Positions 6,518-64,000 of a stretch of DNA of 64,000 bases are shown in pieces. Every line of letters begins with the position of its first letter. Position 1 is the stretch's first letter. Below the pieces are notes generated by a model, which saw only the letters and a program-made list of their open reading frames with translations, searched no databases and was not told where the DNA came from. The stretch covers positions 4,041 to 68,040 of the forward strand of contig JBBACY010000008.1 in NCBI GenBank assembly GCA_041656735.1, in the 5' to 3' direction. The translations under genes and the position numbers were made by a program. This DNA comes from Bacteroidales bacterium. GTDB taxonomy: Bacteria > Bacteroidota > Bacteroidia > Bacteroidales > Tenuifilaceae.

Positions 6518-6921
6518 GGGGCTGACCATGGTTTTGACAGCAAGATGAATGAATTGGTAAGCATGTCGAGCGTTGGGAAGCTGGCTCGTTAATCTCAGGA
6601 CTCAGACCTATAACAGGCGAAAATAACAATTACGCACTCGCTGCTTAGTAAGTACCAAGTACTTCTAACTTAATCGTACCAACAAGGTTGGTATAACGAG
6701 TAGTCTCACGGAGAGCTTCGCCCACTGGAACTCCGAATTGAGGCTTCAAAACAAATGGGCTAGTACAGAATGTTCCCCGGTTTCTGTGCGAAAATTTCGG
6801 GGATAAGGTTTTGGTTGGTCTCTTTCCCCCTGCCAATACTCGAAAATAAAGGAAAGATAAGCATGTAGAAAGCCACTTGGTTCCTTGTTTGGACGAGGGT
6901 TCGAACCCCTCCAGCTCCACA
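6518..6921 (+). ncRNA. ssrA: tmRNA
   Basis: 5' GGGGCTGAC, 3' T-arm GAGGGTTCGAACCCCTC and acceptor CAGCTCCAC(A); tag frame 6616-6648 encodes GENNNYALAA followed by TAG TAA; CCA not encoded. Confidence 0.97.
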
Positions 6922-37600: not shown

Positions 37601-39535
37601 ATGATAAATATTACTTTTCCAGATGGCAGTGTACGTGAGTTTGACAGTGGTGTAACTGGGCTCGACATTGCAAAAAATATATCGGAGCGCTTGGCAAAAG
37701 AAGTGCTCTCAATTACAGTGAATGGTGAGGTATGGGATTTGACGCGTTCAATTAATACCGATGCTTCAATAAAACTGCATAAATGGGACGATGAGGAGGC
37801 GAAGCACGCCTACTGGCACTCTTCAGCACACCTTATGGCCGAGGCCGTTGAGGCATTGTACCCAGGGGTTAAACTGGGTATTGGGCCTAGTATCGAAAAT
37901 GGGTTTTACTACGATATCGACTTTGGCGACTATTCAATTTCCGAGTCCGATTTGACAAAGATTGAGGCGAAGATGCTTGAGTTAACTAAGGCGAAGGAGG
38001 CTATCACTCGTAAAGATGTGACGAAGGCAGAGGCTCTGAAAACATATACAGAAAAAGGTGATCCCTATAAGGTTGAACTGATAAATTCGTTAGACGACGG
38101 AACCATAACCTTTTATACTCAAGGAAACTTTACCGACTTGTGTCGGGGCCCTCACTTGCCCGATACCAGCTATATAAAAGCCTTTAAACTTCTATCAATA
38201 GCTGGAGCATACTGGCGTGGAAATGAGAATAATAAGCAGTTAACCCGTCTATACGGCATATCATTCCCCAAAAAATCGATGCTCGATGAGTATTTGGTTA
38301 TGCTTGAAGAAGCCAAAAAACGCGACCACCGAAAAATTGGTAAAGAACTCGAACTTTTCACCTTCTCGCAGAAAGTAGGACAGGGGTTACCCCTCTGGCT
38401 GCCTAAGGGTGCACAGCTTCGCGAGCGTCTTGAGATGTTCCTGAAAAAAGTTCAAAAAAAATATGGTTACGAACAGGTTATAACGCCTCATATTGGTCAA
38501 AAGGAACTTTACGTAACATCGGGGCATTATGCAAAATATGGGGAGGATTCGTTTCAACCAATTCACACACCAGCCGAAGGCGAGGAGTTTTTACTGAAAC
38601 CGATGAACTGTCCGCATCACTGCGAGATATACAAGTTTAAACCCCGTTCGTATAAGGATTTACCCGTTCGTATGGCCGAGTTTGGCACTGTGTATCGTTA
38701 CGAGCAGAGTGGAGAGCTACACGGTCTTACTAGGGTACGTGGTTTTACTCAGGACGATGCCCATATTTTTTGTCGTCCCGACCAGCTCGAAGAAGAATTT
38801 ATTAAGGTTATCGATATTGTACTTTACATCTTTAAAACGTTAGATTTTAAAGAGTTTACAGCACAAATTTCGTTGCGCGACCCGAACGATAAGGAAAAGT
38901 ATATAGGAAGCGATGAGAACTGGGATAAGGCCGAGCATGCTATCCTTTCAGCAGTTAAACTTAAAGGGTTAACCACCACAACCGTACTTGGTGAGGCCGC
39001 ATTTTATGGTCCAAAGCTCGACTTTATGGTTAAGGATGCCATTGGACGAAAATGGCAGTTGGGCACCATACAGGTTGATTACAACCTGCCCGAGCGGTTT
39101 GAGTTAGAGTATATTGGTGCCGACGATAAGCGCCATCGTCCCATTATGATTCACCGCGCACCCTTCGGATCAATGGAGCGCTTTGTTGCCGTTCTAATTG
39201 AGCATTCGAGCGGCAAGTTTCCCCTATGGCTTGCTCCCGACCAGGTGGTTGTGTTACCCATTAGCGAAAAATTTAACGATTACGCAAAAAAAGTTGCTGA
39301 TTTCCTAAATAATTCCGATATTCGCACCCTAGTAGACGACAGGAACGAGAAAGTAGGTAAGAAGATAAGGGATAACGAGTTAAAGAGAATACCTTACCTG
39401 TTAATTGTCGGAGAAAAGGAAGCAAATGATAATCTAGTATCCGTTCGCCAGCAGGGCGAAGGAGATAAAGGGCAGATGAGTACCAATGATTTTGCCAATT
39501 ATATTACCGAAGAGGTAAACAAACAGTTTAACTAG
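37601..39535 (+). CDS. thrS: Threonine--tRNA ligase
   Basis: TGS domain, [41 protein letters not shown]. Confidence 0.98.
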
Positions 39536-50045: not shown

Positions 50046-50309
50046 AACTAGTAACTAATCAATTCAATGTATAAACACAATTATTACACGGTTATTGTGT
50101 CCAGTATTTAAGCGAGCAAAGTTAGTAAGATAATTGTAAGATGCGATGCAATAGTTTAGTAAATTACCTCTTAGGAGGTTAAAAAGTTTTAATAATTCAA
50201 GTGATACATTTTTTGTTAGCCCAACAAAAGATGAATTATTTACTTTTCTGTTTAAAAAAAATTACTTTTGTCCATAATTCCGACTATGTTTCACTAAAAC
50301 GTTATTATC

Positions 50310-51551
50310 GTGGATATATTTGATAAACTTAGACAAGGTATGGGGCCCATTGGTCAGTATCATAAAGAAGGGCATGGCTACTTTGCGTTTCCAAAACTAG
50401 AAGGCGAAATTAAACCGTGGATGACCTTTAGAGGTAAAGAGGTTTTAACCTGGAGTTTAAATAATTACCTCGGTTTGGCAAATCACCCTGAAGTGCGTAA
50501 GGCCGATGCCGAAGGGGCTGCTAAGTATGGTATGGCCTATCCAATGGGGGCACGAATGATGAGTGGGCAAACCAAACTCCACGAGGAACTTGAAGTAAAG
50601 CTTGCCGCTTTTGTTGGTAAACCAGCAGCATACTTATTAAACTATGGTTACCAGGGGATGGTTTCGATTATTGATTCGTTGGTATCGCGTAATGATGTGG
50701 TGGTTTACGATTCGGAGTCGCATGCTTGTATTATTGATGGGCTAAGGTTATTTCCCGGCAAACGCTTTGTATACGCACATAATGATATGGATAACCTGCG
50801 TAAGCAACTTACGCACGCAACTCGCCTTGCCGAAAAAACAGGAGGAGGAATACTTGTAATTACCGAAGGCGTTTTTGGAATGGCTGGCGACTTAGGTAAT
50901 TTGAAGGATATAGTTGCTTTTAAAAAGGAGTTTAGCTTCCGATTGCTAGTTGATGATGCGCATGGCTTTGGCACAATGGGTAAAACAGGATCTGGAGTAC
51001 CAGAGCATTTCGGAGTTCAAGATGAGGTGGATCTTCATTTTGCAACATTCGCGAAGAGCGGTGCGGGCATTGGTGCTTTTGTGGCGGCCGACGAGGATAT
51101 TATTAGGTATTTAGCTTATAATTTACGTTCGCAGATATTCGCAAAATCACTACCCATGCCTATGGTTGTTGGTGCTTTAAAACGACTAGAGGTAATGCAA
51201 TCGCAACCCGAGCTAAAGGAGAACCTTTGGAAAATTGTGGATGCTTTACAGAGCGGACTTAAGAAGGTTGGTTTGGATATTGGAGTAACCGAGTCGCCTG
51301 TTACACCAGTTTATATGAAGGGTAATGTGCCCGAAGCCACCAATATGGTTTTTGATTTGCGTGAGAACTACAATATTTTCTGTTCAATTGTGGTTTACCC
51401 AGTTGTTCCAAAGGGACAAATGCTATTACGCCTTATACCAACCGCTGTTCACACCCTCGAGGATGTTGAAATTACGATTAAAGCTTTTGCTGAGTGTGCG
51501 CAGAAGTTGAAGGATGGGAAGTATTACGCCGAAAAAATGTCGCAGATATAG
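50310..51551 (+). CDS. Alpha-oxoamine synthase family PLP enzyme, SulA/CapB-like cysteate C-acyltransferase candidate
   Basis: WSLNNYLGLA, MGARMMSGQT, HACIIDG, DDAHG, TFAKS (PLP Lys) and a second Lys 30 residues later in SQIFAKSLP; promoter TACTTTTG at 50263-50270. Confidence 0.8.
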   Translation: MDIFDKLRQGMGPIGQYHKEGHGYFAFPKLEGEIKPWMTFRGKEVLTWSLNNYLGLANHPEVRKADAEGAAKYGMAYPMGARMMSGQTKLHEELEVKLAAFVGKPAAYLLNYGYQGMVSIIDSLVSRNDVVVYDSESHACIIDGLRLFPGKRFVYAHNDMDNLRKQLTHATRLAEKTGGGILVITEGVFGMAGDLGNLKDIVAFKKEFSFRLLVDDAHGFGTMGKTGSGVPEHFGVQDEVDLHFATFAKSGAGIGAFVAADEDIIRYLAYNLRSQIFAKSLPMPMVVGALKRLEVMQSQPELKENLWKIVDALQSGLKKVGLDIGVTESPVTPVYMKGNVPEATNMVFDLRENYNIFCSIVVYPVVPKGQMLLRLIPTAVHTLEDVEITIKAFAECAQKLKDGKYYAEKMSQI

Positions 51552-51552
51552 A
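51422..51552 (+). repeat. Direct repeat copy 1 (3' end of the SulA-like gene)
   Basis: Ungapped match to 60941-61071 with 9 mismatches in 131 bp (manual alignment). Confidence 0.95.
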
Positions 51553-51740
51553 GTTGTAAAATGATTTTGTTTAGTTAATAAGATGTAATTTACTAGCCAA
51601 TTATAACTGCCATTTCTACTTACGTTTGGCTTCGTTCATTATATTTAATCAGGCTAACGGTAAGACTGAGTTACCTGCCTTGAGCGAAGGTGATTTAGAA
51701 GTATTGACTTGTTAATATACTAATGATACATATAAAGAGG

Positions 51741-51766
51741 AGGCTGTCTTTTTAGACAGCCTTTAT
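51741..51766 (+). terminator. Terminator hairpin after the SulA-like gene
   Basis: AGGCTGTCT-TTTT-AGACAGCCT followed by TTATT. Confidence 0.7.
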
Positions 51767-51905
51767 TGTGTTAAGTTCCAACCTCATTTGGATAATTTAT
51801 TACCATTTAGGCGTAAGCATAAATTTTATCAACTTAACAATTTAAGGGTTCTGTTGTTAACACATTTTAAATAACAGGATTTGTTTTACCCTTAAATTAC
51901 TAGGT

Positions 51906-52904
51906 ATGATTCGTGTTTGGCTTAAAGCGCTTAGGGTTATCCCAAAAGTTTCAAAACAAGAATGGGATAGTTACGATATCGTTTCAAGGTGGCTTATTTC
52001 AACCCGTGCCGCCGTTTTTATTATGACTGGACTTGCCGCAGCCATTGGTGGTTTGCTGGCATATCGATCGGGGAGTTTTTCTTGGCCCATCTTTTTACTC
52101 ACATTCTTCGGCTTAATCTTTGCCCATGCCACCAATAATCTATTAAACGATTATGTTGACTTTACAAAGGGTGTTGATAAGGATAATTATTTTCGTGCTC
52201 TCTACGGCCCACACCCACTCGAAAATGGTTTTCTCACCAAGAATCGTTTTATAACCTATATTGTTGTAACCGGGTTACTTGCTTTAGTGGCAGGGCTTGC
52301 CATTACCTATTTGGTTGGTTTGCAAACACTGTGGCTGCTTGTTCCTGGACTTTTTTTCTTGCTTTTTTACACCTGGCCACTAAAATACTATGGACTGGGC
52401 GAAATTTCGGTAGTTCTTGTTTGGGGGCCATTAATGATTGGCGGAAGCTATTTTGTTGTATCGGGTGGAGAATGGAGTAACTGGGTGGCATTGGTTAGCC
52501 TAGTGTATGCCTTTGGTCCAACAACGGTGCTGTTGGGCAAGCACGCCGATAAACTAGAGGCCGATAAGGCTAAAAACATCCATACTATTCCGGTTTTAAT
52601 TGGCCAAAAAGCTTCGCGCTACTCAATCATTGTACTTTGGGTAATTCAGTATGCCTTAGTAGCCTTTTTTGTTATAACGGGTCAGCTGGGGCCAGCAGTA
52701 CTATTGGTTTTACTATCAATACCAAAGTTTATTCAAATGACCAAGGTTATGCTCCAAAAACGACCAGAAGTGCAACCTGAGGGCAAAGAGGGGATAGGCT
52801 GGCCATTGTATTTGGTTAGTAGAGCATTCGTGTTTAACCGATCGTTTGGAATGCTGTTCCTGTTGGGTTTAATTGCCGATGTTATTATTCTGAAATTTTT
52901 CTAG
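51906..52904 (+). CDS. UbiA-superfamily prenyltransferase, MenA-like
   Basis: Multi-TM protein; first Asp-rich motif HATNNLLNDYVDFTKGVD, FYTWPLKYYGLGE; divergent second motif KHADKLEADK. Confidence 0.8.
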   Translation: MIRVWLKALRVIPKVSKQEWDSYDIVSRWLISTRAAVFIMTGLAAAIGGLLAYRSGSFSWPIFLLTFFGLIFAHATNNLLNDYVDFTKGVDKDNYFRALYGPHPLENGFLTKNRFITYIVVTGLLALVAGLAITYLVGLQTLWLLVPGLFFLLFYTWPLKYYGLGEISVVLVWGPLMIGGSYFVVSGGEWSNWVALVSLVYAFGPTTVLLGKHADKLEADKAKNIHTIPVLIGQKASRYSIIVLWVIQYALVAFFVITGQLGPAVLLVLLSIPKFIQMTKVMLQKRPEVQPEGKEGIGWPLYLVSRAFVFNRSFGMLFLLGLIADVIILKFF

Positions 52905-53028
52905 TGATAATTCAACCGCTTAAGTTATAACTGACGTATAGTGTGAAGCTCATTGCCTTTATAAATACAAAAACGGTTTATTGTTTATGTATATAGAGGT
53001 TTTTTAGTGCCCTTTAATATTCTTATTT

Positions 53029-54624
53029 ATGATAAACGCAGCCACAACAGTAATCAAAACCAACATAAAAAGGAGGTCTGACTCATTTGTTGAGAACTAT
53101 AAGGAAACTCAGATAATTATGGAAGAGTTTAAAACAGCAACATCTGCAGTTCTCAACAGAAACAACGATAGCTATGTGGTTAAGCACAGGGCAAAGGGTA
53201 AGATGACTGCCCGCGAGCGTGTTGATAGTTTAATTGATAAGAATACTACATTTTTCGAATTCTCAACCTTAGCTGCAAATGGACTTTACGATAATAAATT
53301 TCATAGTGCCGGAATTATTACTGGCATTGGTGTAATTCAGGGTATTGAGTCCATTATTATTGCAAACGACCCAACAGTAAAAGGAGGAACCTACGTAAAA
53401 GAAACGATTAAGAAACATCTTAGGGCTCAGGAGGTTGCACTTAATAACCATTTACCCTGTGTTTATATTGTTGAGTCGGGTGGAATATTTCTACCCGAAC
53501 AGGCTAATGTTTTTGCTGATCATGACCACTTTGGCAAAATATTTTACAACCAATCCAAGTTATCTGCTGCGGGTATTCCTCAAATTGCAATGGTTATGGG
53601 TTCTTGTACTGCTGGTGGTGCGTACATTCCTGCCATGAGCGACGAATCGATAATTGTTGATAAGCAAGGAACCATATTCCTTGCGGGGCCACCGCTTGTT
53701 AAAGCCGCTATTGGAGAAGAAGTAACTGCCGAGGATCTCGGCGGAGCCTATGTGCATACCCACATTTCGGGTGTAGCCGATCATTTTGCAAAAACAGAGG
53801 CTGATGCCATTCAAACGTGCCGAAATATTTTTGAGTACCTCCCAAAGCCTCGCAAGCATAGTAACAAATCCGAAAGTTTTGAGAAGCCACTATACTCTAT
53901 GGATGAGCTTTATGGGGTAATACACTCTCAAACTTCTCGCTGGATAGACCCATACGAAATTATTGCTCGGGTTGTTGATGGTAGTAAATTTCAGGAGTTT
54001 AAACCCAGCTATGGAAAAACCATAGTTACAGGCTTTGCTAAAATTATGGGGCAAACCATTGGGGTTATTGCCAATAACGGTGTGCTTTTTTCCGAGTCGG
54101 CGCTTAAGGCTACGCATTTTATTGAGATGTGTAGTATTCGAAAAATACCACTCGTTTTTTTGCATAATATAACGGGTTTTATGGTTGGTAAAAGTGCCGA
54201 ACAAAAAGGTATTGCAAAAGACGGAGCCAAAATGGTGCATGCGGTTGCCAATGCAAATGTTCCAAAAATCACCATCGTCTTTGGCCGCTCGCACGGTGCG
54301 GGCAACTATGCAATGGCAGGCCGTGCCTATAAACCTACACTACTTTTTGCATGGCCTAACTCCAAAATTTCAGTTATGGGAGGTCGTCAGGCAGCTGAGG
54401 TTCTCGGTAGCGTAAAGCAGAAAGGCGTTGAAGATATTGATGAGTTTAAAAAAGAAATCATAAAGCGTTACGAAGATGAAGCATCGGCTTACTTTGGCAC
54501 TGCGCGCCTTTGGGACGATGGTATTATCGATCCTGTGGATACACGAAAAGCAATTGCCTTGGGTTTATCTATTGCTGCTAACAAAGAAGTTCCGCATTAC
54601 AAGCCCGGTATTTATAGAATGTAA
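53029..54624 (+). CDS. Acyl-CoA carboxylase carboxyltransferase, methylcrotonyl-CoA carboxylase beta (LiuB-like)
   Basis: ANDPTVKGGTY, ESGGIFLP, GSCTAGGAY, FLAGPPLVKAA, NITGFMVG, GAGNYAMAGRAY, ARLWDDGIIDP. Confidence 0.9.
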   Translation: MINAATTVIKTNIKRRSDSFVENYKETQIIMEEFKTATSAVLNRNNDSYVVKHRAKGKMTARERVDSLIDKNTTFFEFSTLAANGLYDNKFHSAGIITGIGVIQGIESIIIANDPTVKGGTYVKETIKKHLRAQEVALNNHLPCVYIVESGGIFLPEQANVFADHDHFGKIFYNQSKLSAAGIPQIAMVMGSCTAGGAYIPAMSDESIIVDKQGTIFLAGPPLVKAAIGEEVTAEDLGGAYVHTHISGVADHFAKTEADAIQTCRNIFEYLPKPRKHSNKSESFEKPLYSMDELYGVIHSQTSRWIDPYEIIARVVDGSKFQEFKPSYGKTIVTGFAKIMGQTIGVIANNGVLFSESALKATHFIEMCSIRKIPLVFLHNITGFMVGKSAEQKGIAKDGAKMVHAVANANVPKITIVFGRSHGAGNYAMAGRAYKPTLLFAWPNSKISVMGGRQAAEVLGSVKQKGVEDIDEFKKEIIKRYEDEASAYFGTARLWDDGIIDPVDTRKAIALGLSIAANKEVPHYKPGIYRM

Positions 54625-54629
54625 AAAGT

Positions 54630-55433
54630 ATGGATAGTTACAACGAGATATGCATTGATACTAAAGGTGGTGTAACCACAATTTGGCTTAATAAACCAGA
54701 TTTGCATAATGCTGTAAGTATTCAGATGCTAGAAGAGTTGACCGATTGCTTTCACTCCATTGAGCAAATGGATAACGTTAGGGTCATCGTTTTAAGAGGT
54801 AAGGGTAAGTCGTTTAGTGCTGGTGCCAATCTTGTTAATATGCTTGCAGTTAGCAAGTCAGGTTACGAGCAAAACCTTGACGATGGGTACAAGTGGACTA
54901 GTTGTTTAAGTTCAATTGCAAGTTCAAGTAAGCCAACTATTGCCATTGCAACGGGCAACGTATTTGGCGGAGGGAATGGGCTTCTGGCAGCTGCCGATAT
55001 GGTGATTGCCGATGAGAATGCAATATTTTCGTTCTCAGAGGTGAAACTAGGTCTTGCCCCCTCAACAATATTACCTTATGTGTTAACTCGTGTTAACCAG
55101 CAAAAGGCTAAGTACCTAATGCTTACAGGCAAAAGATTTAGCGCAGCCGAAGGGTACGACTATGGTCTTGTTGATTTTTTAACACCCTCCGAAAAGATTG
55201 AAGCATTATTGAACTCAATCATCGCCGATTTACGTAAAGCTTCTCCCAGCGGGATTAAGGAAATTAAACGATTGATAAGGGAACTTGGACATTGCTCTAA
55301 CATTGATGAGGTAAACAACCTAACGGCCAACTCCATTGCCACTTTAAAAACATCTACAGAGGCTCAGGAGGGCATTAGCGCATTTATTGAAAAACGGAAG
55401 CCTTACTGGCTAGTTGAAAATGAAAACGAATAA
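54630..55433 (+). CDS. Crotonase-family enzyme, methylglutaconyl-CoA hydratase (LiuC-like)
   Basis: LNKPDLHNA, FSAGANL, GGGNGL (no first Glu) and FSEVKLGLAP (second Glu), as in bacterial LiuC-type hydratases; EAQEGISAFIEKRKP. Confidence 0.8.
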   Translation: MDSYNEICIDTKGGVTTIWLNKPDLHNAVSIQMLEELTDCFHSIEQMDNVRVIVLRGKGKSFSAGANLVNMLAVSKSGYEQNLDDGYKWTSCLSSIASSSKPTIAIATGNVFGGGNGLLAAADMVIADENAIFSFSEVKLGLAPSTILPYVLTRVNQQKAKYLMLTGKRFSAAEGYDYGLVDFLTPSEKIEALLNSIIADLRKASPSGIKEIKRLIRELGHCSNIDEVNNLTANSIATLKTSTEAQEGISAFIEKRKPYWLVENENE

Positions 55434-55454
55434 GATAATCTGAAAGATAAGAAT

Positions 55455-56597
55455 ATGCATCATCCATTAATAAACAAACAGCATAATGACCTTCGTGAAC
55501 AAGTTCGTATTTTTGCTGAAAAGGAGATAAAGCCATTGGCTCAAGGGCTCGATGAACGAAGCGAGTTTTCGGTTGAACTAACCAAAGCGATGGGTAAAAT
55601 TGGACTCTTCGGAATGAACCTACCTGTGGAGTTTGGCGGTCGAAATCTCGACACCCTTTCATACATCATCGCCGTTGAGGAGTTGGCGCGGGTTGATAGT
55701 TCCCAGGCGGCTACTATGGCTGCCCATAATTCGTTGGGAATTACTCCAATTTACAAGTACGGCAATAGTGAGCAGCAAAAACGTTTGCTGCCTAGTTTAA
55801 CCTCAGGCGAAGGCGTTTGGGCATTTGGTTTAACCGAGCCCAATGCTGGTTCTGATGCCCGAGCCATTGAAACTACAGCGCTTCTTAAAACCAATCAATG
55901 GGTTGTAAATGGTCAAAAGATATTTATAACCAACTCGGCATCAGAGTTATCCAAGGGAGTAACTCTATTGGCCAACACAAGCGATAAGGAGGGTCAAAAG
56001 GAATTCTCAGCCATTATTGTCGAGAGGGAGGTATCAGAATACAAAGCAGAACCAATTCATAATAAGATGGTTTGGCGGGCTGCCGATACGGGGCTGTTAA
56101 CATTTAATAATACCATTGTTCCAGAACAAAATTTGCTTGGCGAGCGTGGAAGAGGGATGCATTATATGTTGGAAACCTTAGATTCTGGTAGACTTTCAAT
56201 TGCTGCAGTTGGACTTGGTTTGGCGCAAGGAGCATTCGAAATGGCGAATGCGTATGCTAAAAAAAGGCATCAGTTTGGCAAGTCACTATCGAAAATTCAC
56301 GCTATTTCCGATAAGTTAGCCGAAATGGATATTAAGCTCGAATTGGCAAGAAACTACCTTTACTACAGCTGTTGGCTAAAGGATAATAACCTGCCTTTTA
56401 AAAAGCAGGCTGCCATCTCGAAACTATATACATCCGAAATTGCTAAGCAGATAGCCGACGAAGCCGTTCAGATTTTTGGCGGTTACGGACTGTTTAAAAA
56501 TAATGATATTGAGCGTTTTTACCGCGACCAGCGTATTCTGGGTATTGGAGAAGGAACTACAGAAATTTTGAAATTGGTGATTGCCAGGAGTATATAA
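55455..56597 (+). CDS. Acyl-CoA dehydrogenase (short/branched-chain type)
   Basis: FGLTEPNAGSDA, NGQKIFITN, RLSIAA, AVQIFGGYG, RFYRDQRILGIGEGTTEI. Confidence 0.92.
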   Translation: MHHPLINKQHNDLREQVRIFAEKEIKPLAQGLDERSEFSVELTKAMGKIGLFGMNLPVEFGGRNLDTLSYIIAVEELARVDSSQAATMAAHNSLGITPIYKYGNSEQQKRLLPSLTSGEGVWAFGLTEPNAGSDARAIETTALLKTNQWVVNGQKIFITNSASELSKGVTLLANTSDKEGQKEFSAIIVEREVSEYKAEPIHNKMVWRAADTGLLTFNNTIVPEQNLLGERGRGMHYMLETLDSGRLSIAAVGLGLAQGAFEMANAYAKKRHQFGKSLSKIHAISDKLAEMDIKLELARNYLYYSCWLKDNNLPFKKQAAISKLYTSEIAKQIADEAVQIFGGYGLFKNNDIERFYRDQRILGIGEGTTEILKLVIARSI

Positions 56598-56658
56598 CTT
56601 TTTCAAAGAAGAAACTCAGGCTTTCGGGGTAAAAACATAATTTACAGAGTTGTTAACT

Positions 56659-57966
56659 ATGAGTAATTCACAATATATTAACGGATTTTCAAAGCTAAGC
56701 AACAGCGAAAAAATCTCGATTATTGTTTCGCGTACTAACATTGCTATTGAACAGTTTAATGTGCTGAACCAATTTAAACTACAAAATACTGAAATACAGA
56801 AGCAGCTAAATGAGATTAGCGAAAACGTAGTATCCAACTATATGCTGCCTTTTAGCATAGCTCCTAACTTTATGGTGAATGGCAAGGCTTACTTTGTGCC
56901 AATGGTTATTGAGGAAAGTTCTGTAGTTGCTGCTGCATCGGCTGCGGCAAAATTTTGGTTCAATCGGGGTGGGTTTGTTGCCAAGGTAATTTCTACCATA
57001 AAGGTAGGGCAGGTGCATTTTAGGTGGCTGGACAATTCAAAGCAATTGAAATCAGAATTTGAAAACATTAAAGAGCGATTGATAGCAAGTTCCTCGCATT
57101 TGCTCGAGAATATGCGAAGGCGCAATGGGGGTATTGTTGATATTGAATTGATTGATTTTACCAATAAACTTGAGAACTACTACCAGGTAAGGGTTAAGTT
57201 TGAAACTGCCGATGCAATGGGAGCCAACATTATCAATTCGGTTCTTGAAGAGATGGCGCAGGCGTTAAAACAATATTTTTTTGAGCATTTTAGCGATGCT
57301 GAATCCGAATGCGACATTGTAATGGCAATTCTATCAAACCATACCCCCGAGAGCATTGTTGAGTGCTATGTTGAGTGTGATATTGATGATTTGGCGGAAA
57401 TTTCAGGCGAGCTATCGCCAATGGAATATGCTCAAAAATTTAAGCTGGCCGTTGATATTGCAAACGTCGATATTTACAGGGCTACAACCCACAATAAAGG
57501 AATCTACAATGGGGTTGATGCCGTTGTACTGGCTACCGGAAACGATTTTCGTGCGGTTGAGGCTTGTGGTCACTCTTACGCTGCCCGAAATGGGTACTAC
57601 AAAAGTTTAACAACTGTAGATATCGATAAGGGCAAATTTCGATATACGCTTCGTATTCCTATGGCACTGGGAACGGTGGGGGGATTAACCAATCTTCACC
57701 CCTTGGCAAAACTCTCGCTCGATATTTTGGGTAAGCCATCGGCTAAAGAGCTAATGGCAATAGTTGCAGCAGCAGGACTTGCAAATACATTTTCGGCAGT
57801 TCGGGCGCTTACTACCTCCGGAATTCAGAAGGGACATATGCGATTTCATCTAAATAATATTTTAAGTTTGCTAAACGCAACCAATGATCAGAAAGAGCGG
57901 GCAGAGGAGTACTTTAAAAACAGGAAGGTTTCGCATAAATCTGTACAAGAATTTCTAGGAAGTTAA
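56659..57966 (+). CDS. mvaA: Class II HMG-CoA reductase
   Basis: ENVVS, PMVIEESSVVAA (Glu), DAMGAN, THNKGIYNG (Lys), GNDFRA (Asp), IQKGHM (His); ATG 56659 (ORF track starts at TTG 56650). Confidence 0.95.
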   Translation: MSNSQYINGFSKLSNSEKISIIVSRTNIAIEQFNVLNQFKLQNTEIQKQLNEISENVVSNYMLPFSIAPNFMVNGKAYFVPMVIEESSVVAAASAAAKFWFNRGGFVAKVISTIKVGQVHFRWLDNSKQLKSEFENIKERLIASSSHLLENMRRRNGGIVDIELIDFTNKLENYYQVRVKFETADAMGANIINSVLEEMAQALKQYFFEHFSDAESECDIVMAILSNHTPESIVECYVECDIDDLAEISGELSPMEYAQKFKLAVDIANVDIYRATTHNKGIYNGVDAVVLATGNDFRAVEACGHSYAARNGYYKSLTTVDIDKGKFRYTLRIPMALGTVGGLTNLHPLAKLSLDILGKPSAKELMAIVAAAGLANTFSAVRALTTSGIQKGHMRFHLNNILSLLNATNDQKERAEEYFKNRKVSHKSVQEFLGS

Positions 57967-58006
57967 ATCTATTCTTTCTGTTTTGCATAACTAATAGTTT
58001 CATTCA

Positions 58007-58924
58007 ATGTACGCTAAATTCTACGCCCACGGAAAGCTTCTTATCACGGGTGAGTACTTTGTACTTGCAGGTGCCAAAGCATTTGCACTGCCCCTTAAAC
58101 TTGGCCAAAGTTTGCAGGTTGCGGAGGTAGAGGGCGATAGTAGGATTATAAAATGGCAAACCACCGTACAGGGTAGTAGCTGGTTTTCTGCGGAGTTTAA
58201 ACTTGATGATTTTTCGATTATCAACACAAACAGAATAAAATCAGCAGAGTACATTCAACTTTTATTAATCTATATTAATCAAAAAAGTTTGGTCTTCAGA
58301 AACTTAAAAAGACAGTTAATACTTGCGGCTAATGTTGATTTTCCAATGGATTGGGGCTTGGGTAGCAGCTCAACGCTAATATCAAACTTGGCAAATTGGG
58401 CGGGCATAGACCCATACAGTATGCTGTTTGCCGTTTCCAAAGGGTCGGGTTACGATATTGCTTGCGCCACCGCAAAAGGGCCAATACTATATAGTAATTT
58501 GGTTAAACCTACGGTAGAAAAGGCGTGTTTCAATCCCAGTTTCGGCGAGAACCTTTACTTTGTTTATTTGGAAAGAAAGCAGGATACAGCAATAAGCATC
58601 AATTTGGTAGGTTCTAAAATTTTTGAGCAAAAGGATGAGGCAAAAAGAATTACAGAGCTTGCCAAACTTGTGATAAACTCCAAAAGTCTTGATGAGTTTA
58701 ATGGCTATTTAAATGAGCACGAGGAAATTGTGTCGAGGGCAATAGGTTTGCCAACGGTTAAGTCAGAGCTGTTTAATGATTTTACAGGAACTGTAAAATC
58801 GTTGGGTGCTTGGGGTGGCGACTTTGTTTTAGCCACTCATCGTGGGACAGTCGATGATGTTGTTAACTACTTTAAACAAAAGGGTTACAGCGTAATACTC
58901 AAATATAATGATATTGTGCTATGA
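58007..58924 (+). CDS. GYDIA-type GHMP kinase, phosphomevalonate kinase candidate
   Basis: HGKLLITGEY, WGLGSSST, SGYDIAC, KSLGAWGGDF. Confidence 0.8.
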   Translation: MYAKFYAHGKLLITGEYFVLAGAKAFALPLKLGQSLQVAEVEGDSRIIKWQTTVQGSSWFSAEFKLDDFSIINTNRIKSAEYIQLLLIYINQKSLVFRNLKRQLILAANVDFPMDWGLGSSSTLISNLANWAGIDPYSMLFAVSKGSGYDIACATAKGPILYSNLVKPTVEKACFNPSFGENLYFVYLERKQDTAISINLVGSKIFEQKDEAKRITELAKLVINSKSLDEFNGYLNEHEEIVSRAIGLPTVKSELFNDFTGTVKSLGAWGGDFVLATHRGTVDDVVNYFKQKGYSVILKYNDIVL

Positions 58925-60024
58925 GCCATTTGCCACAAAGCAAAAAGTATTTAAAGGATGCCGAAAGCCTTACGTTTTTTGAGCTTTCCAGTCCTAAAAG
59001 TGTAGGTTGGGAAAGCCCATCGAATATTGCATTGGTAAAGTATTGGGGCAAGTATGGCGAGCAGCTGCCTCAGAATCCTTCGTTAAGTTTCACGCTTAAG
59101 CATTCTAAAACCATTACCCGAATTGAATATCAAAAGAAGCAGAAAGAATTGCCATTGCTTGAATACTATTTTGAGCAGAAGCAAAATATTGAATTTGAAG
59201 ATAAGGTTCGAAAATACCTTGACAGAATTTCAATTTACATTCCTTTTATAAAGAGACTTGATTTACTTATATACAGCCAAAATACGTTTCCGCATTCGGC
59301 AGGTATTGCCTCTTCGGCATCGGCATATAGCGCATTGGCGCTATGTTTATGCAGTATTGAGAATGAGTTATTTGGCAAGCTCAATGATACCCGTAAGTTT
59401 CTCCAAAAAGCATCGTTTTTGGCACGGTTGGGGTCGGGTAGCGCTTGTCGTTCAACCTATGGCGAGTTGGTTCTCTGGGGCGAAACCAAGAGTGTAAAAG
59501 GTTCGAGTAATGAGTCTGCCATTGAATTGAGAAGCGAAGTAAATTCTGTTTTCAAAAACTATTTTGATGCAATTCTCATAATCGACTCGGGCAAAAAGGA
59601 GCTTTCCAGCACCCTCGGGCACGGTTTAATGCAAAACCATCCATTTGCTACTGCTCGGTACGAGCAGGCTAGGCAAAATTTAGATAAAATTTTAGAAAGT
59701 CTAAAGATGGGCGACGAGCGGAATTTTGCTCAGATTGTTGAGAACGAGGCAATTACGCTGCACGCCCTACTTCTGTCATCGGTTCCATCGGTCTCGCTAC
59801 TTAAGCCAAACACGCTAGTGGCTCTCGAGAGGTTAAAGGCTTTTAGAACGAGTAGTCAACTTAATTTCACCTTTACGCTCGATGCAGGTGCCAATATCCA
59901 CATACTTTATAAAGCCTCAATTAGGACACAAATGGTTGATTTTATTACAAGTAACCTAACAGAACTATGTGAGAATGGACTTTGGATTGATGATGAAATT
60001 TCTACAGGACCCAATAAACTATAA
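58921..60024 (+). CDS. mvaD: Diphosphomevalonate decarboxylase
   Basis: SPSNIALVKYWGK, FPHSAGIASSAS, RLGSGSACRS, FTLDAGAN; ATGA overlap with the upstream kinase. Confidence 0.93.
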   Translation: MSHLPQSKKYLKDAESLTFFELSSPKSVGWESPSNIALVKYWGKYGEQLPQNPSLSFTLKHSKTITRIEYQKKQKELPLLEYYFEQKQNIEFEDKVRKYLDRISIYIPFIKRLDLLIYSQNTFPHSAGIASSASAYSALALCLCSIENELFGKLNDTRKFLQKASFLARLGSGSACRSTYGELVLWGETKSVKGSSNESAIELRSEVNSVFKNYFDAILIIDSGKKELSSTLGHGLMQNHPFATARYEQARQNLDKILESLKMGDERNFAQIVENEAITLHALLLSSVPSVSLLKPNTLVALERLKAFRTSSQLNFTFTLDAGANIHILYKASIRTQMVDFITSNLTELCENGLWIDDEISTGPNKL

Positions 60025-60036
60025 CCATACAAATTT

Positions 60037-60906
60037 GTGAAATACTTCAATTCTAAAATATTGCTATTTGGCGAGCATACGGTTCTCTATGGTTCCGATG
60101 CATTGCTAATGCCATTTTCAGGTTTTTCGGGTAAGTTCGATTTTATTTCAAATAATCAGTGCAACGACGACAAGTTGGTATCACACAAAATACTAGTTGC
60201 ATTTTCAGAATTCGTTGAGAAATCAGATTTTGCAAATCTTTTTAATAGTTCGCAGATTGCTTCGGAACTCAGCAAGGGACTTTACTTTAACTCTAATATC
60301 CCCATAGGTTATGGTGTAGGGAGTTCGGGTGCGATGGTAGCCGCATTTTATCGCAAATTTAAAATTGAGAAGGAAGAGAGGGAAATTGAAGAGGTACGAA
60401 GGATACTTGCTGAGCTTGAATCCTATTTCCACGGGACCAGCTCAGGCCTCGACCCATTGGTTAGCTATCTGAATAAACCATTACATAAAAGCAATAATGT
60501 AAATCAGGTGGATATTGAACTTTCTCCATTCAATGCATTTATAGTTGACACGGATATCTCCCGTTCTACGCAAAATCTGGTAAATGATTTTAAAGCTAAA
60601 GCAGGAGTTTCTGATTTTGAAAATTTGGTAATACCAGCTATCGTAAAAAGTACAAACGGATGCATTAAAGCAATTCTGAATGCAGATTTTGACGATTTCT
60701 TTTCTAACCTAAGGGAGCTATCCGCTTTACAATTTCAGCATCTGCAAGAATTTATCCCAGTCGATTATCGCTTTCTATGGAAAAAGGGGCTTAATACCGA
60801 TGGCTTTTACCTTAAACTATGCGGTGCGGGTGGTGGTGGGTACATTTTAGGGTTTGCTAAAAAATCTAGCGGACTGCCTAAAAGCAAGAAACTAATTATA
60901 TTGTAG
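60037..60906 (+). CDS. mvk: Mevalonate kinase
   Basis: KILLFGEH, SNIPIGYGVGSSGA, HGTSSGLD, KLCGAGGGG; GTG start. Confidence 0.85.
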   Translation: MKYFNSKILLFGEHTVLYGSDALLMPFSGFSGKFDFISNNQCNDDKLVSHKILVAFSEFVEKSDFANLFNSSQIASELSKGLYFNSNIPIGYGVGSSGAMVAAFYRKFKIEKEEREIEEVRRILAELESYFHGTSSGLDPLVSYLNKPLHKSNNVNQVDIELSPFNAFIVDTDISRSTQNLVNDFKAKAGVSDFENLVIPAIVKSTNGCIKAILNADFDDFFSNLRELSALQFQHLQEFIPVDYRFLWKKGLNTDGFYLKLCGAGGGGYILGFAKKSSGLPKSKKLIIL

Positions 60907-60940
60907 CCTTTATTCACCCAATTGTTTTAAAGCCTCAAAA

Positions 60941-61071
60941 GCTATTGCGCCTTATACCAACCGCTGTACACACCCTCGAGGATGTTGAAATCACGATTAA
61001 TTTTTTTGCTGAGTGAGCGCAGAAGTTGAAGGATGGGAAGTATTACGTCGAAAAAATGCCGCAGATATAGA
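60941..61071 (+). pseudogene. Direct repeat copy 2: detached, decaying 3' end of the SulA-like gene
   Basis: 122/131 identical to 51422-51552; TGT(Cys) changed to TGA in frame; no upstream gene body. Confidence 0.92.
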
Positions 61072-61098
61072 TTTTTAAACACTATTAATACATACAAA

Positions 61099-61128
61099 GA
61101 GAGAGGGTGCTAGCTAGCACCCTCTCTC
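61099..61128 (-). terminator. Perfect 30-bp palindrome, probable terminator of the S41 peptidase
   Basis: GAGAGAGGGTGCTAG/CTAGCACCCTCTCTC; followed by TTTGTAT on the minus strand. Confidence 0.7.
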
Positions 61129-61143
61129 ATCTTTACAAAGTGT

Positions 61144-64000
61144 TTAAATGTTTTTAAGTAGTTCCTTAATAGCTACTTCGAGCTGCTCATCACGACCTTT
61201 ATCTATTTCGCCTGGCATATTTTTTACTATAATGTCGGGCACCGATTGATTGTTTTCCAACCATTCGCCCTTCATATTTTTTGCGCTAACCGGAATTGAA
61301 CCCCACATTATTTTACCATTCTGAAGCATTTCCCAGCCGGCAAAGCTACAAGTGCCTGGCACGGGCATACCAATTAGAGTTCCTATTCCTAAATCTTGGT
61401 ATCCACAGCTAAAACAATGCCCATCGCTGTAGTTTGACTCGTTTACTAGCGCAACCGAGGGTCTTGTCCAGCGGGCAAGGGGTTCGGTACCCAGTGAGCG
61501 AGTTTCAATGGCATACTCAATAAAATTTTGACCAGTTAGGAACATAGCTAAATCGCTAACCAAATCGCCTCCACCATTAAAACGAGTATCAATAATCAGT
61601 CCTTTAGTTTGGGCATATTTACCCATAGCTTTTTCGTAGGTGTTACGGTATGGTTCATCGCTCATTCCAGGAATATGAACATAACCAAGCTGTCCTTTGC
61701 TTAGACTATCCACTAGCTCCTCGTTTTGTTTTACCCATCTGTTGTAAAGTAGCGAATTTTCTTGACCTTGGCTTATGGGCTTCACTGTTATGCTAAATGT
61801 TGACCCTTGTTTTGGGTCAGTAATTTCAAGCGATGTAAATTTATTGGCTTTCTTGTCTAAAAATTTCGCAAAATCTACATCATGGGTAATTGCTTCGCCA
61901 TCAATTGATTTAATAATCATATTTGGTTTTACCTTAATATGTTCTTTATCAAGCGGACCAAACTTCATTACTTCAGCAATTTTAATACCTGCACCTTGGT
62001 AGGTATAGTCGATAAAAATACCTAACGATGCTGTTTCTGTACCATTTGGAATGCTACCGCGATAGCGTGCTCCGCTATGTGAAACGTTAAGTTCGCCAAG
62101 CATTTCCGATAGCAATTCGGTAAGTTCAAAATCGTTACCTAAAAGCGGTAGTTTTGGTTCATACTCCTCGCGAAGTTTGTCCCAAGGTGCACCGTGGTAG
62201 TCTGATATATAGAACATTGCCTTGTTACGCTTCCAAACATGATCAAACATTAGCTGGCGTTCCTCGTCAAGATTTATTGTAACTTCACCGCTTATACTAA
62301 CGGGCTTGGTAGATTTCGCCTTGAGGTCGATGGTAGATATTGCGCCGTTTGATAGCATAAAAAGGGTACTCATATCTTTGCTCCACTCAAGACTCGCCGA
62401 TCTTTCATTGAGCGGAATAATCATTTTGGTTTCATTGGTGCGAAGGTTGGTGCTCCAAAGGTTTAATCCTTTTTCGAATCGGGCAAGGTAGTATAGGGTT
62501 TCTCCATCTTTTGAGAGTACCGCATCCGAGAGGCTCGAAGAGTGAATTGTTAGGCGCTTCTTTCTGTCCTTAAGACCGTCCCAATCAATTTTTACCTGAG
62601 TTGAGTCAACTTTATCCTTATCCTCTTTATCATTCTTTTTCTTCTTCGATTTCTTGTCTGAATCTTTGTCTTTCTCCTTGTTTTTCTCTTTGTCGAGTTT
62701 CTCTATCTCTTTCCAAAGATTATAATCATCTTCGGTCATACTAAATTTATCCCAACCGTCGCGGGTAAAGAAGAGAGAGTACACATCGAGCTGCCGTGAG
62801 CTGCTGGTAGCCAGTCCACGTAGTCCGTGCCTATCGCTAAACCATAAAATTTGTTTCCCTCCGTTAACCCATTTAGCCGAGTAGTCGCCAAAGCCACTTT
62901 CGGTTAGATTTACCATCTCCTTCTTGCCGTTCACATCAATTAAAACAACCTCGCTTACCCCAAGGTTGGGCGAATATCCTGTAAGTAACCATTGGCTATC
63001 GGGACTCCAATCAAACTGCTGGCCACCATCGCTCATATAAAATAGCTCATCAGAGCCAAGAATTTCGCGTATTTGCTTGCTTTCAATATTATATATTTTT
63101 AGCGAGCGTCGGTTCTCAATAAAAGCAATCTCTTTACCGTCTGGAGATATTTTAGGTTGGTAATTGTCGTTGTTGTTGTTAATTATTTTTTCCTCAGTTA
63201 AAAGGGTAGAGGCGAAAAAGAATGGCTCTTCGTTTGTAGCCTTAGACGTTTTATAAATTCCCCAAACGCAGTTTCGCTGACTAGCATATATTATCGATTT
63301 GCCATCGGGCGAAAAGCTTATAAATCTTTCTTGCTCGGTTGTATTGGTAATGCGTTTTGTGAATTTCCCTTCAACTGATGATACGAAAACTTCGCCTCTG
63401 GCAATAAAGGCAACCTCTTTGCCATTGGGCGATACGGCCATTTCGCTAATGTTTCCGGTTATTGGGAGAATCTGTTCGTTGTTGATAAGCGACCCGCTTT
63501 GAATTTTTACATCAATTTTTTGAGGTTCGGCTCCCTGTTTTTGTGTGTATAGGTCTCCGTGGTGCGTATAGCATAGGGTTTCGTTATTGCTGATGGAGAG
63601 AAACCGTACGGGATGAAACTCGAAACTTGTTACTTGTTCAACTTTGCTTGGGTTGTTAAGGCTTAGCTTATGCACATTAAAGGTACCGTTTTGCTCGCTA
63701 AGGTAGAAAATGCTCTTGTTGTCGCTTGAAAAAACGGGGTTTCTATCTTCTCCTTCATACGAAGTAATCATTTTATGCTGATTACTCACAACATCGTAAG
63801 CCCAAATATCACGCGTAATTGCCGATGTATGATGCTTGCGCCATTCATTCTCGCCCCCTTTTTTATCCTGATAAACCATAGTTTTGCCATCGCTGCTAAC
63901 GCTAACCAATTCTGCAGGAATTGTCCAAAGCTGGTCAACTCGACCTCCACTAGCTGGCACAGTGTACACCTCGGGTTGTGAGCCTGTGGGGTATTGCCTG
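61144..64000 (-). CDS. S41-family tricorn-like protease; 5' end runs off the window
   Basis: PD40/beta-propeller repeats, PDZ-like segment, GYVHIPGM, IIDTRFNGGG, NESNYSDGH; frame stays open to position 63999. Confidence 0.93.
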   Translation of the reverse strand, partial: RQYPTGSQPEVYTVPASGGRVDQLWTIPAELVSVSSDGKTMVYQDKKGGENEWRKHHTSAITRDIWAYDVVSNQHKMITSYEGEDRNPVFSSDNKSIFYLSEQNGTFNVHKLSLNNPSKVEQVTSFEFHPVRFLSISNNETLCYTHHGDLYTQKQGAEPQKIDVKIQSGSLINNEQILPITGNISEMAVSPNGKEVAFIARGEVFVSSVEGKFTKRITNTTEQERFISFSPDGKSIIYASQRNCVWGIYKTSKATNEEPFFFASTLLTEEKIINNNNDNYQPKISPDGKEIAFIENRRSLKIYNIESKQIREILGSDELFYMSDGGQQFDWSPDSQWLLTGYSPNLGVSEVVLIDVNGKKEMVNLTESGFGDYSAKWVNGGKQILWFSDRHGLRGLATSSSRQLDVYSLFFTRDGWDKFSMTEDDYNLWKEIEKLDKEKNKEKDKDSDKKSKKKKNDKEDKDKVDSTQVKIDWDGLKDRKKRLTIHSSSLSDAVLSKDGETLYYLARFEKGLNLWSTNLRTNETKMIIPLNERSASLEWSKDMSTLFMLSNGAISTIDLKAKSTKPVSISGEVTINLDEERQLMFDHVWKRNKAMFYISDYHGAPWDKLREEYEPKLPLLGNDFELTELLSEMLGELNVSHSGARYRGSIPNGTETASLGIFIDYTYQGAGIKIAEVMKFGPLDKEHIKVKPNMIIKSIDGEAITHDVDFAKFLDKKANKFTSLEITDPKQGSTFSITVKPISQGQENSLLYNRWVKQNEELVDSLSKGQLGYVHIPGMSDEPYRNTYEKAMGKYAQTKGLIIDTRFNGGGDLVSDLAMFLTGQNFIEYAIETRSLGTEPLARWTRPSVALVNESNYSDGHCFSCGYQDLGIGTLIGMPVPGTCSFAGWEMLQNGKIMWGSIPVSAKNMKGEWLENNQSVPDIIVKNMPGEIDKGRDEQLEVAIKELLKNI

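Follow-up and report, generated by a model that had tools for sequence, protein, structure and literature searches.

An isoprenoid operon between two copies of a gene end in a Tenuifilaceae bacterium: probable relocation of native DNA by the cell's own recombination

The DNA studied here is a stretch of 64,000 nucleotides (called the window) from a Bacteroidales bacterium of the Tenuifilaceae (assembly GCA_041656735.1, contig JBBACY010000008.1, forward-strand positions 4,041 to 68,040). The element in question is a 9.2-kb isoprenoid operon of eight genes (the block), which lies between two copies of the end of an alpha-oxoamine synthase (AOS) gene and is followed by a gene for an S41 peptidase (Table 1). 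An earlier note on this DNA had taken the block for a foreign island that was inserted at the 3' end of the AOS gene by a site-specific recombinase since lost. The comparisons described here favour another account as the probable one, namely that a native operon reached its place between the AOS and S41 genes through the cell's own recombination, and that the duplicated gene end is a by-product of this and not an attachment (att) site. The AOS protein, whose gene the note had called SulA-like, had as its best NCBIfam match the CFB serine palmitoyltransferase, below the cut-off. As a reference set, 80 loci around AOS homologues were taken from species-representative genomes (all Bacteroidales, several labelled Tenuifilaceae or Perlabentimonas), and in these the order coaBC, rpoZ, bamD-like gene, AOS gene was widely conserved.

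Table 1. Features of the AOS-S41 region. Positions are those of the window; type A, type C, L096 and L100 are contigs of relatives that are described in the text.
Feature	Position	Strand	Remarks
AOS gene (BioF/Kbl/Spt family), intact	50310..51551	+	Pfam Aminotran_1_2
Repeat copy 1	51394..51560	+	native last ~155 nt of the AOS gene plus ~9 nt past the stop
155-nt unique stretch	51562..51716	.	between copy 1 and T'; no counterpart past copy 2
T', diverged second spacer and terminator	51717..51764	+	hairpin 51739-51764, -18.4 kcal/mol (terminator scan, fold)
J3, left block junction	51764..51765	.	directly after the T' hairpin; start of homology in relatives
Upstream operon region, ~140 nt, presumed promoter/operator	51765..51905	+	alignment of window, type A, type C, L096 and L100
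UbiA-family prenyltransferase gene (ubiA)	51906..52904	+	no NCBIfam match at curated cut-off
Acyl-CoA carboxyltransferase (Liu-like)	53029-54624	+	Pfam Carboxyl_trans; NCBIfam below cut-off
Enoyl-CoA hydratase (Liu-like)	54630-55433	+	Pfam ECH_1; NCBIfam below cut-off
Acyl-CoA dehydrogenase (Liu-like)	55455-56597	+	Pfam Acyl-CoA_dh; NCBIfam below cut-off
HMG-CoA reductase, class II 'degradative'	56659-57966	+	NCBIfam cut-off passed
GYDIA-family GHMP kinase (NCBIfam NF040656, uncharacterised)	58007-58924	+	NCBIfam cut-off passed
Diphosphomevalonate decarboxylase	58921-60024	+	above Pfam cut-off, below NCBIfam cut-off
Mevalonate kinase (mvk)	60037-60906	+	above Pfam cut-off, below NCBIfam cut-off
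J1 spacer	60907..60917	.	9-11 nt from the mvk stop to AOS homology
Repeat copy 2, AOS 3' pseudogene fragment	60913..61079	+	in-frame TGA 61014-61016
T, spacer and 30-nt perfect palindrome	61081..61128	.	hairpin 61099-61128, -26 kcal/mol
S41/tricorn-like peptidase gene	61144..64000	-	full gene 1089 aa, past the window end to 64413

The block holds the mevalonate set of 3-hydroxy-3-methylglutaryl-CoA (HMG-CoA) reductase, mevalonate kinase, a second GHMP kinase and diphosphomevalonate decarboxylase, and neither an HMG-CoA synthase nor a thiolase was found among its genes with Pfam and NCBIfam. Because the genes for the Liu-like dehydrogenase, carboxyltransferase and hydratase lie directly upstream of that for HMG-CoA reductase (HMGR), and because those two enzymes are missing from the block, the gene content suggests entry from isovaleryl-CoA (from leucine or isovalerate) and a route through HMG-CoA and mevalonate to isopentenyl diphosphate, with the UbiA-family enzyme as the consumer. 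The predicted carboxyltransferase would need a biotin-carboxylase partner encoded elsewhere. Strains without the block exist (see below), which implies that the module is dispensable, and presumably these bacteria have another isoprenoid route; no gene of the methylerythritol phosphate (MEP) pathway was present among the window open reading frames (ORFs) that were scanned. A search of the literature found no description of a Liu-mevalonate operon in Bacteroidetes.

A repeat search of the window showed that 51394-51560 and 60913-61079 form an ungapped direct repeat of 167 nt, 89% identical and with a spacing of 9519 bp. Its 19 mismatches are unevenly spread, with eight in the left 28 nt, nine in a 131-nt core (51422-51552 and 60941-61071) and two in the 8 nt past the stop codon. 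For the core, the counts given in the earlier note (131 nt, nine mismatches, spacing 9519) were reproduced exactly, and the weaker extension of about 28 bp that it had placed upstream of the core corresponds to the segment with eight mismatches. Its description of the two copies was also borne out: copy 1 is the functional end of an intact AOS-family gene, and copy 2 starts about 10 nt past the end of mvk and carries an in-frame stop produced by a change of TGT to TGA. The duplicated unit is longer than the note had given, as it includes the spacer and terminator past the stop codon. Downstream of the stop of copy 1 comes a unique stretch of 155 nt and then a diverged version (T') of the spacer and terminator (T) that lie downstream of copy 2. 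When CTAATGATACATATAAAGAG-GAGGCTG of T' was compared with CTATTAATACATACAAAGAGAGAGGGTG downstream of copy 2, 24 of 27 aligned positions agreed, a score reached by 1 of 2000 shuffles, and by our reading of both sequences the pairing in the T' stem is kept through a double change (G>C and C>G). T is predicted to be a bidirectional terminator between the convergent mvk/copy 2 and S41 genes, and a hairpin at its position is also found in the four loci L001, L002, L089 and L104 that are introduced below. Rfam gave only sub-threshold hairpin matches at 60850-61200.

Short-read assembly graphs break at a near-identical repeat of 131 nt, and several Logan contigs do end inside this one, which raised the question of whether copy 2, or the entire arrangement, is an artefact of assembly. 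However, depth was equal over the flanks and the block in four independent public runs (about 24 in X1, 33 in X2, 9 in X3 and 45-58 in X20), and contigs crossed every junction: in X2 one contig (51288-52157) runs from copy 1 to the ubiA side and another (60088-61127) from mvk to copy 2, and one in X1 (61018-64000) leads from copy 2 to the S41 gene. The structure is the same in further assemblies of strains that are 98-99% identical (L082-L085, L102 and L103), so that both copies and all junctions are covered by independent runs and assemblers, and a sister species (L089) shows the same junction with a different sequence. Misassembly was ruled out by the depth and the junction-spanning contigs, and we regard an artefact as practically impossible.

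None of the 80 species-representative loci had the eight genes downstream of the AOS gene. In the two closest species (L001 and L002, AOS 91% identical at the amino acid level) the hairpin and then the S41 gene come straight after the AOS gene, and the same arrangement occurs within the species of the window: a locus retrieved by an exact look-up of the AOS protein (L104), 99.7% identical to the window over the 8.1-kb left flank, passes from the AOS gene through T to the S41 gene at once. In samples X25 and X26, which come from different studies, depth was 13-17 in the flanks and 0-4 over the block, and the joint 51560>61100 was present at full depth (13.6 and 13.9, respectively); X27 and X28 showed the same drop over the block. 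L001, L002, L104, X25 and X26 thus contain the empty site, with the AOS gene facing the S41 gene, that had been predicted in the earlier note. Block-like DNA of at least 80% identity at flank depth was absent from two of the three samples tested, X26 and X28, and the strains in these therefore lack the operon altogether; the third, X25, holds a separate organism with a block of about 83% identity at roughly 10x and is uninformative on this point. The deletion product, seen in L104, X25 and X26, is a single hybrid repeat with the left side of copy 1, the core, and the sequence downstream of copy 2, and it is 9519 nt shorter. Such an empty allele is what would be expected of recombination between copy 1 and copy 2. 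Empty alleles occur on two left-flank haplotypes that are also found in filled strains (positions 50089, 51053 and 51068), and we lean towards recurrent loss of the operon as their origin, with a primary empty state as a possible alternative. As a separate observation, in two related species (L005 11588-12184 and L006 11568-12164) the AOS gene is followed by a gene for a membrane protein (p208) with no S41 gene between them; the adjacency of AOS and S41 is thus variable in the group.

The two copies also exchange sequence. In the window, L102 and L103 the core has nine mismatches; in L085 and X8, where the words shared by both copies are at roughly double depth, it has none, and in L082 and L084 it is a mosaic. 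The left 28 nt of the repeat are diverged in all strains, even where the core is homogenised. In X2, copy 1 carries the copy 2 letter at 51527 (T for C, at full depth), a change of Ala to Val in the functional AOS gene, so that the pseudogene fragment apparently donates sequence to the working gene. These patterns indicate gene conversion, that is, non-reciprocal exchange, between the repeats, and consequently the 7% divergence of the repeat dates nothing.

Contigs with the block in relatives were reached through homologues of HMGR and UbiA, and a metagenome scan with mvk returned only two loci. The eight genes are a native operon of a Tenuifilaceae-like clade, located elsewhere on the chromosome in relatives. 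In the contigs that we call type A (L086, L087 and L088; block DNA about 80% identical to the window) the eight genes and their upstream region lie between a gene for a protein of 473 aa (with or without a gene of 170 aa) and a convergent corA, the stops of mvk and corA abut, and dps, a peroxiredoxin gene and fur follow past corA. A seven-gene core of the operon without ubiA was found across related genera, including Perlabentimonas (P. gracilis L090, L092 and L091, HMGR 73-74%), and as L092 still has the 473-aa gene and a 179-aa gene upstream of the core, the context on the side of the 473-aa gene is ancestral. Among contigs nearer to the window, the 473-aa gene precedes ubiA in L096, L098 and L099 (86.8% for UbiA plus carboxyltransferase), a truncated fabH and a truncated 473-aa gene lie left of ubiA in L100 and L101 (95.5% overall), and a glutaminase gene lies left of the block in type C (L093-L095, 88.7%). 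The ancestral row of genes left of the block reads glutaminase, thiolase, SDR, SSF transporter, acetyl-CoA hydrolase, fabH, fabH, 168 aa, 531 aa, hydrolase, 132 aa and 473 aa. This row shows nested deletions in related populations (L100 1-11000, L093 4733-8930, L096 1-8862), being gone from fabH to the first half of the 473-aa gene in L100 and past the glutaminase gene in type C.

The block of L100 (10871-19459) proved to be a mosaic when compared with the window (51764-60351), with 85-96% identity up to about 54760 and 97-99% onward, so that its 3' part differs from the window no more than strains of the window species do among themselves. In that species the 5' third of the block is near-invariant, and variation reaches 9% per 500 nt in the 3' two-thirds. 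The mosaic indicates recombination between populations inside the operon, and it ruled out the use of L100 as a clean sister lineage for dating J3. A second, diverged copy of the block in the same genome was also considered and rejected, as the type A contig L086 belongs to a separate low-abundance organism; no second left junction at 90% identity or more was present in X2 or X3.

The sister species L089 has 85% DNA identity to the window (HMGR 88% and S41 90% at the amino acid level), and it is informative about the right-hand junction (J1), at which the end of mvk is joined to position -155 of the AOS gene. The alignment of L089 with the window is unbroken for 9.1 kb, from the acyl-CoA dehydrogenase gene, where the L089 contig starts, through J1, the AOS fragment and a T-like hairpin into the S41 gene, at an even 85-89%. 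J1 therefore predates the species split and is orthologous in the two species. The mvk gene evolves much faster than its operon partners: it is 70-74% identical at the amino acid level to L089 and type A, compared with 84-92% for acyl-CoA dehydrogenase, HMGR and UbiA, and its DNA identity to L089 dips to 0.69-0.76 along the gene. Homology to AOS begins in L089 at the position seen in the window, with a possible 3-nt overlap (ACC) at J1. The 13 nt past the mvk stop of L089 contain TCTATAGCCAC, which agrees at 10 of 11 positions with the reverse complement of the last codons of corA in L086/L088 (reached by 9 of 20000 shuffles); the spacer of the window, CCTTTATTCAC, is likewise not AOS sequence. 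The AOS fragment of L089, which no longer has a stop codon, shares 83% identity with copy 1 and only 74% with copy 2 of the window, so the two fragments decayed independently. Copy 2 is a decaying pseudogene in both species, and it travels with the operon in the sister.

Beyond the S41 gene, L089 has the start of p208 (37 codons of the gene found next after S41 in the contig of the window), then about 40 nt matching the 3' end of mvk (0 of 2000 shuffles), and then an intact corA with 83% DNA identity to that of type A. These pieces show that in L089 mvk and corA are separated by a 3.8-kb segment, made up of the AOS end, T, the S41 gene and the start of p208, with a duplicated mvk end flanking it. 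L096, a contig of the same run, is very probably the left flank of the L089 operon: in the independent run X1, a minor organism has an L096-like left junction at a depth of 5.9 and an L089-like right junction from mvk to T at a depth of 5.25. No crossover breakpoint inside S41 was visible in the identity profile of the window and L089, and an AOS-protein cluster look-up for the AOS locus of the sister species returned clusters of one member each. With respect to age, the left edge of the repeat (about 29% diverged) and the L089 fragment (17% from copy 1) are better guides than the core and point to an event near the species split. The earlier note had inferred an old event from the divergence of the repeat; the age stands, since the junction is shared with L089 at 85% and is older than the species, but the argument does not, as a core that differs by 0-9 positions among strains of 98-99% identity is no clock.

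On the left side of the block, the last 158 nt of the AOS gene are not unusually diverged from relatives (divergence ratio 1.12, compared with 1.16 ± 0.13 in other pairs). Copy 1 is for this reason native, and there is no break in ancestry between it and the remaining gene of the kind implied by the earlier suggestion that the island had brought a restoring gene end with it. The junction J3 itself was sharply defined, as homology to L096 and to L100/L101 begins at 51764/51765, to the nucleotide, and that to type C (L093) at the same point by alignment. For type A (L087 and L088) BLAST homology begins only at 51814-51821, and the preceding 50 nt or so align more weakly. On its left side J3 abuts the T' hairpin and has no homology. 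The region of about 140 nt between J3 and ubiA is kept in every block context (L100 10872-11011, L093 8787-8927, L096 8723-8862), and moved together with the operon; it opens with a palindrome-like motif, which is TGTGTTTAATCCTAATCACA in relatives and TGTGTTAAGTTCCAACCTCA in the window, and no Rfam family matched at 51400-52000, which includes it. The 155-nt stretch between copy 1 and T' had no homologue in the window or in 108 fetched loci (strains of the window species excepted), no ORF of at least 60 aa and no Rfam match, and a search for a source of this stretch and T' together found none in any fetched locus or in the window. In our reading of the aligned sequences T is nearer than T' to the L089 hairpin, which is as expected if T goes with the fragment and the AOS gene's own terminator is T'.

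Taken together, we think it very likely that the repeat stems from recombinase-free recombination among native chromosomal segments. The history that we propose would have three stages. Near the split from the sister species, a 3.8-kb copy of the AOS 3' end, the terminator, the S41 gene and the start of p208 would have been placed between mvk and corA, either by a tandem duplication of which the second copy was then largely deleted or by a templated ectopic insertion, with the 3-nt ACC as microhomology at J1. In the lineage of the window, the paralogous S41 segment would then have provided a homologous anchor by which the operon, J1, the fragment, its terminator and S41 were put behind the intact AOS gene and its own T'; one join would be a homologous crossover in the S41/p208 region and the other, J3, an illegitimate one right after the T' hairpin. 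This second step would resemble homology-facilitated illegitimate recombination or ectopic break repair, and we put the specific route forward tentatively, at somewhat under even chances. In the third stage, which would be ongoing, host homologous recombination between the repeats produces gene conversion and precise loss of the operon. Our verdict, which we hold as likely, is that this is a recombinase-free, repeat-flanked, deletable operon that arose by illegitimate and homologous recombination, along a path whose exact course is inferred.

Several observations weigh against this history. For the 155-nt stretch and the strongly diverged T', no source was found in the fetched loci or in the window. 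The left junctions of the window and of type C coincide within 2 nt, beside the palindromic motif, which is not predicted by random illegitimate breaks; the coincidence may reflect chance, selection for the whole regulatory region, a preferred breakage site or a site-specific step, and it is the one observation that we cannot explain. The J1 spacer of the window is read as a decayed remnant of the corA 3' end, but its match to that end is 7 of 11, which is not significant, and it is too decayed to assign. The assignment of L096 and L089 to a single genome is based on their co-occurrence and equal depth, with no joining contig. The NCBI bin that contains L100 (GCA_028680705.1) also contains L007, an AOS locus 86% identical to that of the window at the amino acid level, so that either the bin is mixed or there was gene flow. 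Finally, the comparison material consists of metagenome contigs throughout, and these include neither the right flank of L100 or type C nor the sister species' AOS locus nor the corA locus of the window's own species, so that the first two stages stay reconstructions.

In the explanation of the earlier note, a foreign island was integrated site-specifically at the AOS 3' end by an integrase that has since disappeared, which would make the repeats attL and attR and copy 2 the native end in its displaced form. This explanation has in its favour the direct repeats at the 3' end of an intact gene, the presence/absence polymorphism with a clean empty site, and the variety of genomic contexts that the block has in close relatives, the left boundary being the same in two of these contexts. 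That the eight genes came to the site as one unit is also upheld by the empty sites in relatives and in the same species. Repeats of this kind are, however, equally produced by homologous insertion-duplication, and four features that define an island (a recombinase, foreign cargo, a gene-proximal repeat borne by the island and a defined att core) fail here. No recombinase was found among the ten proteins from AOS to S41, all of which had metabolic or peptidase assignments (Pfam/NCBIfam), among 20 ORFs of at least 150 aa at 2119-36952 (Pfam) or among the genes at about 40.3-50 kb (precomputed Pfam labels), with 37601-39535 and 39.5-40.3 kb unscanned. The cargo is an operon native to the clade, and the comparison of composition called for by the earlier note gave native values (GC 0.406 versus 0.399 and GC3 within range, with the tetranucleotide distance ranking 8 of 42 among segments of equal size). 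Neither repeat fits the role that this model gives it, since copy 1 has no separate ancestry and copy 2 is linked by descent to the operon in a species in which it does not adjoin the AOS gene; moreover, the repeat takes in a whole terminator and one copy is interrupted by 155 nt. The tail of corA at the right end in L089, and the p208 and mvk stumps on the far side, are what illegitimate joins leave behind and do not mark a defined att. A plasmid or phage vector was ruled out, as the block had no relatives on plasmids or phages beyond distant matches to the carboxyltransferase gene. An integrase-borne origin is for these reasons very improbable.

Three explanations without an integrase were also weighed. 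A circle that carried the operon, J1, an old AOS fragment and T', was closed at J3 and came from a relative or from the same genome with the fragment already beside the operon, could have integrated by a single Campbell-type crossover at the AOS 3' end, in which case the empty-site strains would be the primary state and the incoming parts would be the sequence downstream of copy 1 (155 nt and T') and the left edge of copy 2. An insertion-duplication would have exactly this topology, the empty-site strains carry the T linked to copy 2 and no block at all, an old fragment would account for the decay at the left edge of copy 2, and the block is a mosaic between populations, hence DNA was exchanged. 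Nevertheless, T', which would be the incoming terminator, is by our reading less like the fragment-linked one of L089 than T is, a fully native copy 1 needs a crossover within about 12 nt of the stop codon, empty alleles on at least two flank haplotypes common with filled strains suggest repeated loss and not gain, and no circular junction was seen, though contigs could not show one, the join diagnostic of a circle being one that spans the 131-nt core; we regard this origin as unlikely. A single old duplicative insertion, by which the common ancestor of the window species and L089 gained in the AOS 3' end a copy of the operon at the corA locus (by a pair of template switches, or by tandem duplication with one deletion) so that J1, J3 and the duplicated gene end with its terminator arose together, would need the fewest kinds of event, would make T and T' old paralogues, and would leave the mvk remnant beside the corA of L089 as what is left of the original copy, which would have disappeared later (in L089 through a deletion that reached from p208 to the end of mvk, and elsewhere in the window species). 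It predicts an AOS gene upstream of the operon in the species of L089, whereas the only matching left junction in that run, and at equal depth in X1, is that of the 473-aa gene with ubiA; the deletion in L089 would have to take tRNA-Leu and what lies beyond (in the window species, the start of the nqr operon); and the 5' third of the L100 block, at the old locus, is about 92% identical to that of the window and thus closer than L089. This we judge to be improbable. The same low standing is given to the idea that the operon is a discrete cassette hopping between chromosomal sites without a recombinase of its own, with the AOS pseudogene fragment as portable homology that would target it to the AOS locus and allow its reversible excision. 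It is prompted by the finding that block DNA 85-95% identical to that of the window has at least three left neighbours (AOS, glutaminase and the 473-aa gene, the last also truncated), with two of these junctions coinciding within 2 nt just before the palindromic motif. If it were true, it would be a general way for operons to turn mobile in which gene stumps act as bait and a trans-acting factor at the palindrome may assist. Our preference thus stays with the staged history, in which the operon was placed behind the AOS gene by host recombination.

The surroundings of the locus provided some further observations. The scanned part of the window contains a tmRNA gene (6518-6920, tag ENNNYALAA) that adjoins rho, and the presence of tmRNA, rho, sigma-70, phosphoenolpyruvate carboxykinase and htpG identifies the window as core chromosome. 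Past its end, the contig of the window (L081 15262-20870, 1.3-6.9 kb beyond the window end, where the window coordinate equals that of L081 plus 50036) has a phage-like segment after tRNA-Leu(GAG) that is strain-specific and encodes head-morphogenesis and neck-like proteins. When the contig was compared with the 98% identical strain L085, homology ended exactly at the 3' end of tRNA-Leu, and L085 continued with a TPR gene, a gene of 455 aa and nqrA. This phage-like insertion is a classic integrase-type site, beside one that is not.

The scars that can still be read show how an entire metabolic operon can move to a new address and turn deletable by host recombination only. Direct repeats that bracket a segment at the end of a gene are commonly attributed to an integrase, and here this would misclassify native DNA as a foreign island; since the repeat is reset by gene conversion, the event would also be misdated. 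For annotation pipelines, this is a caution against calling islands from repeats alone. For ecology, it means that a mevalonate/Liu-type operon is present or absent among strains that are otherwise at least 99.7% identical, in digesters, landfills and wastewater.

In comparison with known systems, the arrangement is an unusually well-documented case of a known kind and not a new system. Integrase-borne islands, integrative and conjugative elements and prophages in the 3' ends of tRNA, tmRNA and protein genes are alike in having repeats at their ends, an intact target, an empty site and accessory metabolic cargo. They differ from the block in that here there is no recombinase and no short att core, the repeat consists of 155 nt or more of coding sequence and a terminator, the cargo is native to the clade and comes from another locus, the sister species carries the tail of a neighbouring gene, and the composition is native. 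Tandem duplication followed by differential loss is a model for changes of gene order in mitochondrial genomes, and its likeness lies in a segment whose end is joined to the middle of a gene and in stumps (the AOS end, the p208 start and the mvk end) where redundant copies were deleted; it would cover only the first stage of the proposed history, as a large duplication lasting across two speciation events is unlikely. Campbell integration, the single crossover of circular DNA with a gene fragment that is familiar from the genetics of suicide plasmids, likewise gives an intact gene, an insert and a truncated 3' copy and is reversible through the duplicates, whereas the present case is a natural one in which no vector or circular form was observed.

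Among natural elements, the small H47 island of Escherichia coli is also recombinase-less and is excised between short flanking direct repeats (PMC5426353). Tests of E. coli recombination functions, among them RecA-dependent pathways, reportedly pointed to none that takes part in the excision of H47 (PMC5426353). The likeness consists in a recombinase-less island between direct repeats whose loss depends on functions of the host (PMC5426353). The repeats described here differ in being 131-167 nt long, which is enough for ordinary homologous recombination, and in showing gene conversion. Homology-facilitated illegitimate recombination is proposed to leave orphan 3' ends at type VI secretion system (T6SS), Rhs and contact-dependent inhibition (CDI) loci (PMC3240628, PMC5361080). 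It would share with the history proposed for the AOS locus one end anchored by homology and one illegitimate end, and it shares with that locus a displaced or duplicated fragment of a gene 3' end downstream of the incoming module. In contrast to the T6SS, Rhs and CDI arrays, the anchor proposed here is a paralogous chromosomal segment of S41 and an AOS fragment left by an earlier rearrangement, a 9-kb metabolic operon stands in place of a toxin/immunity pair as the module, and the donor may be the same genome.

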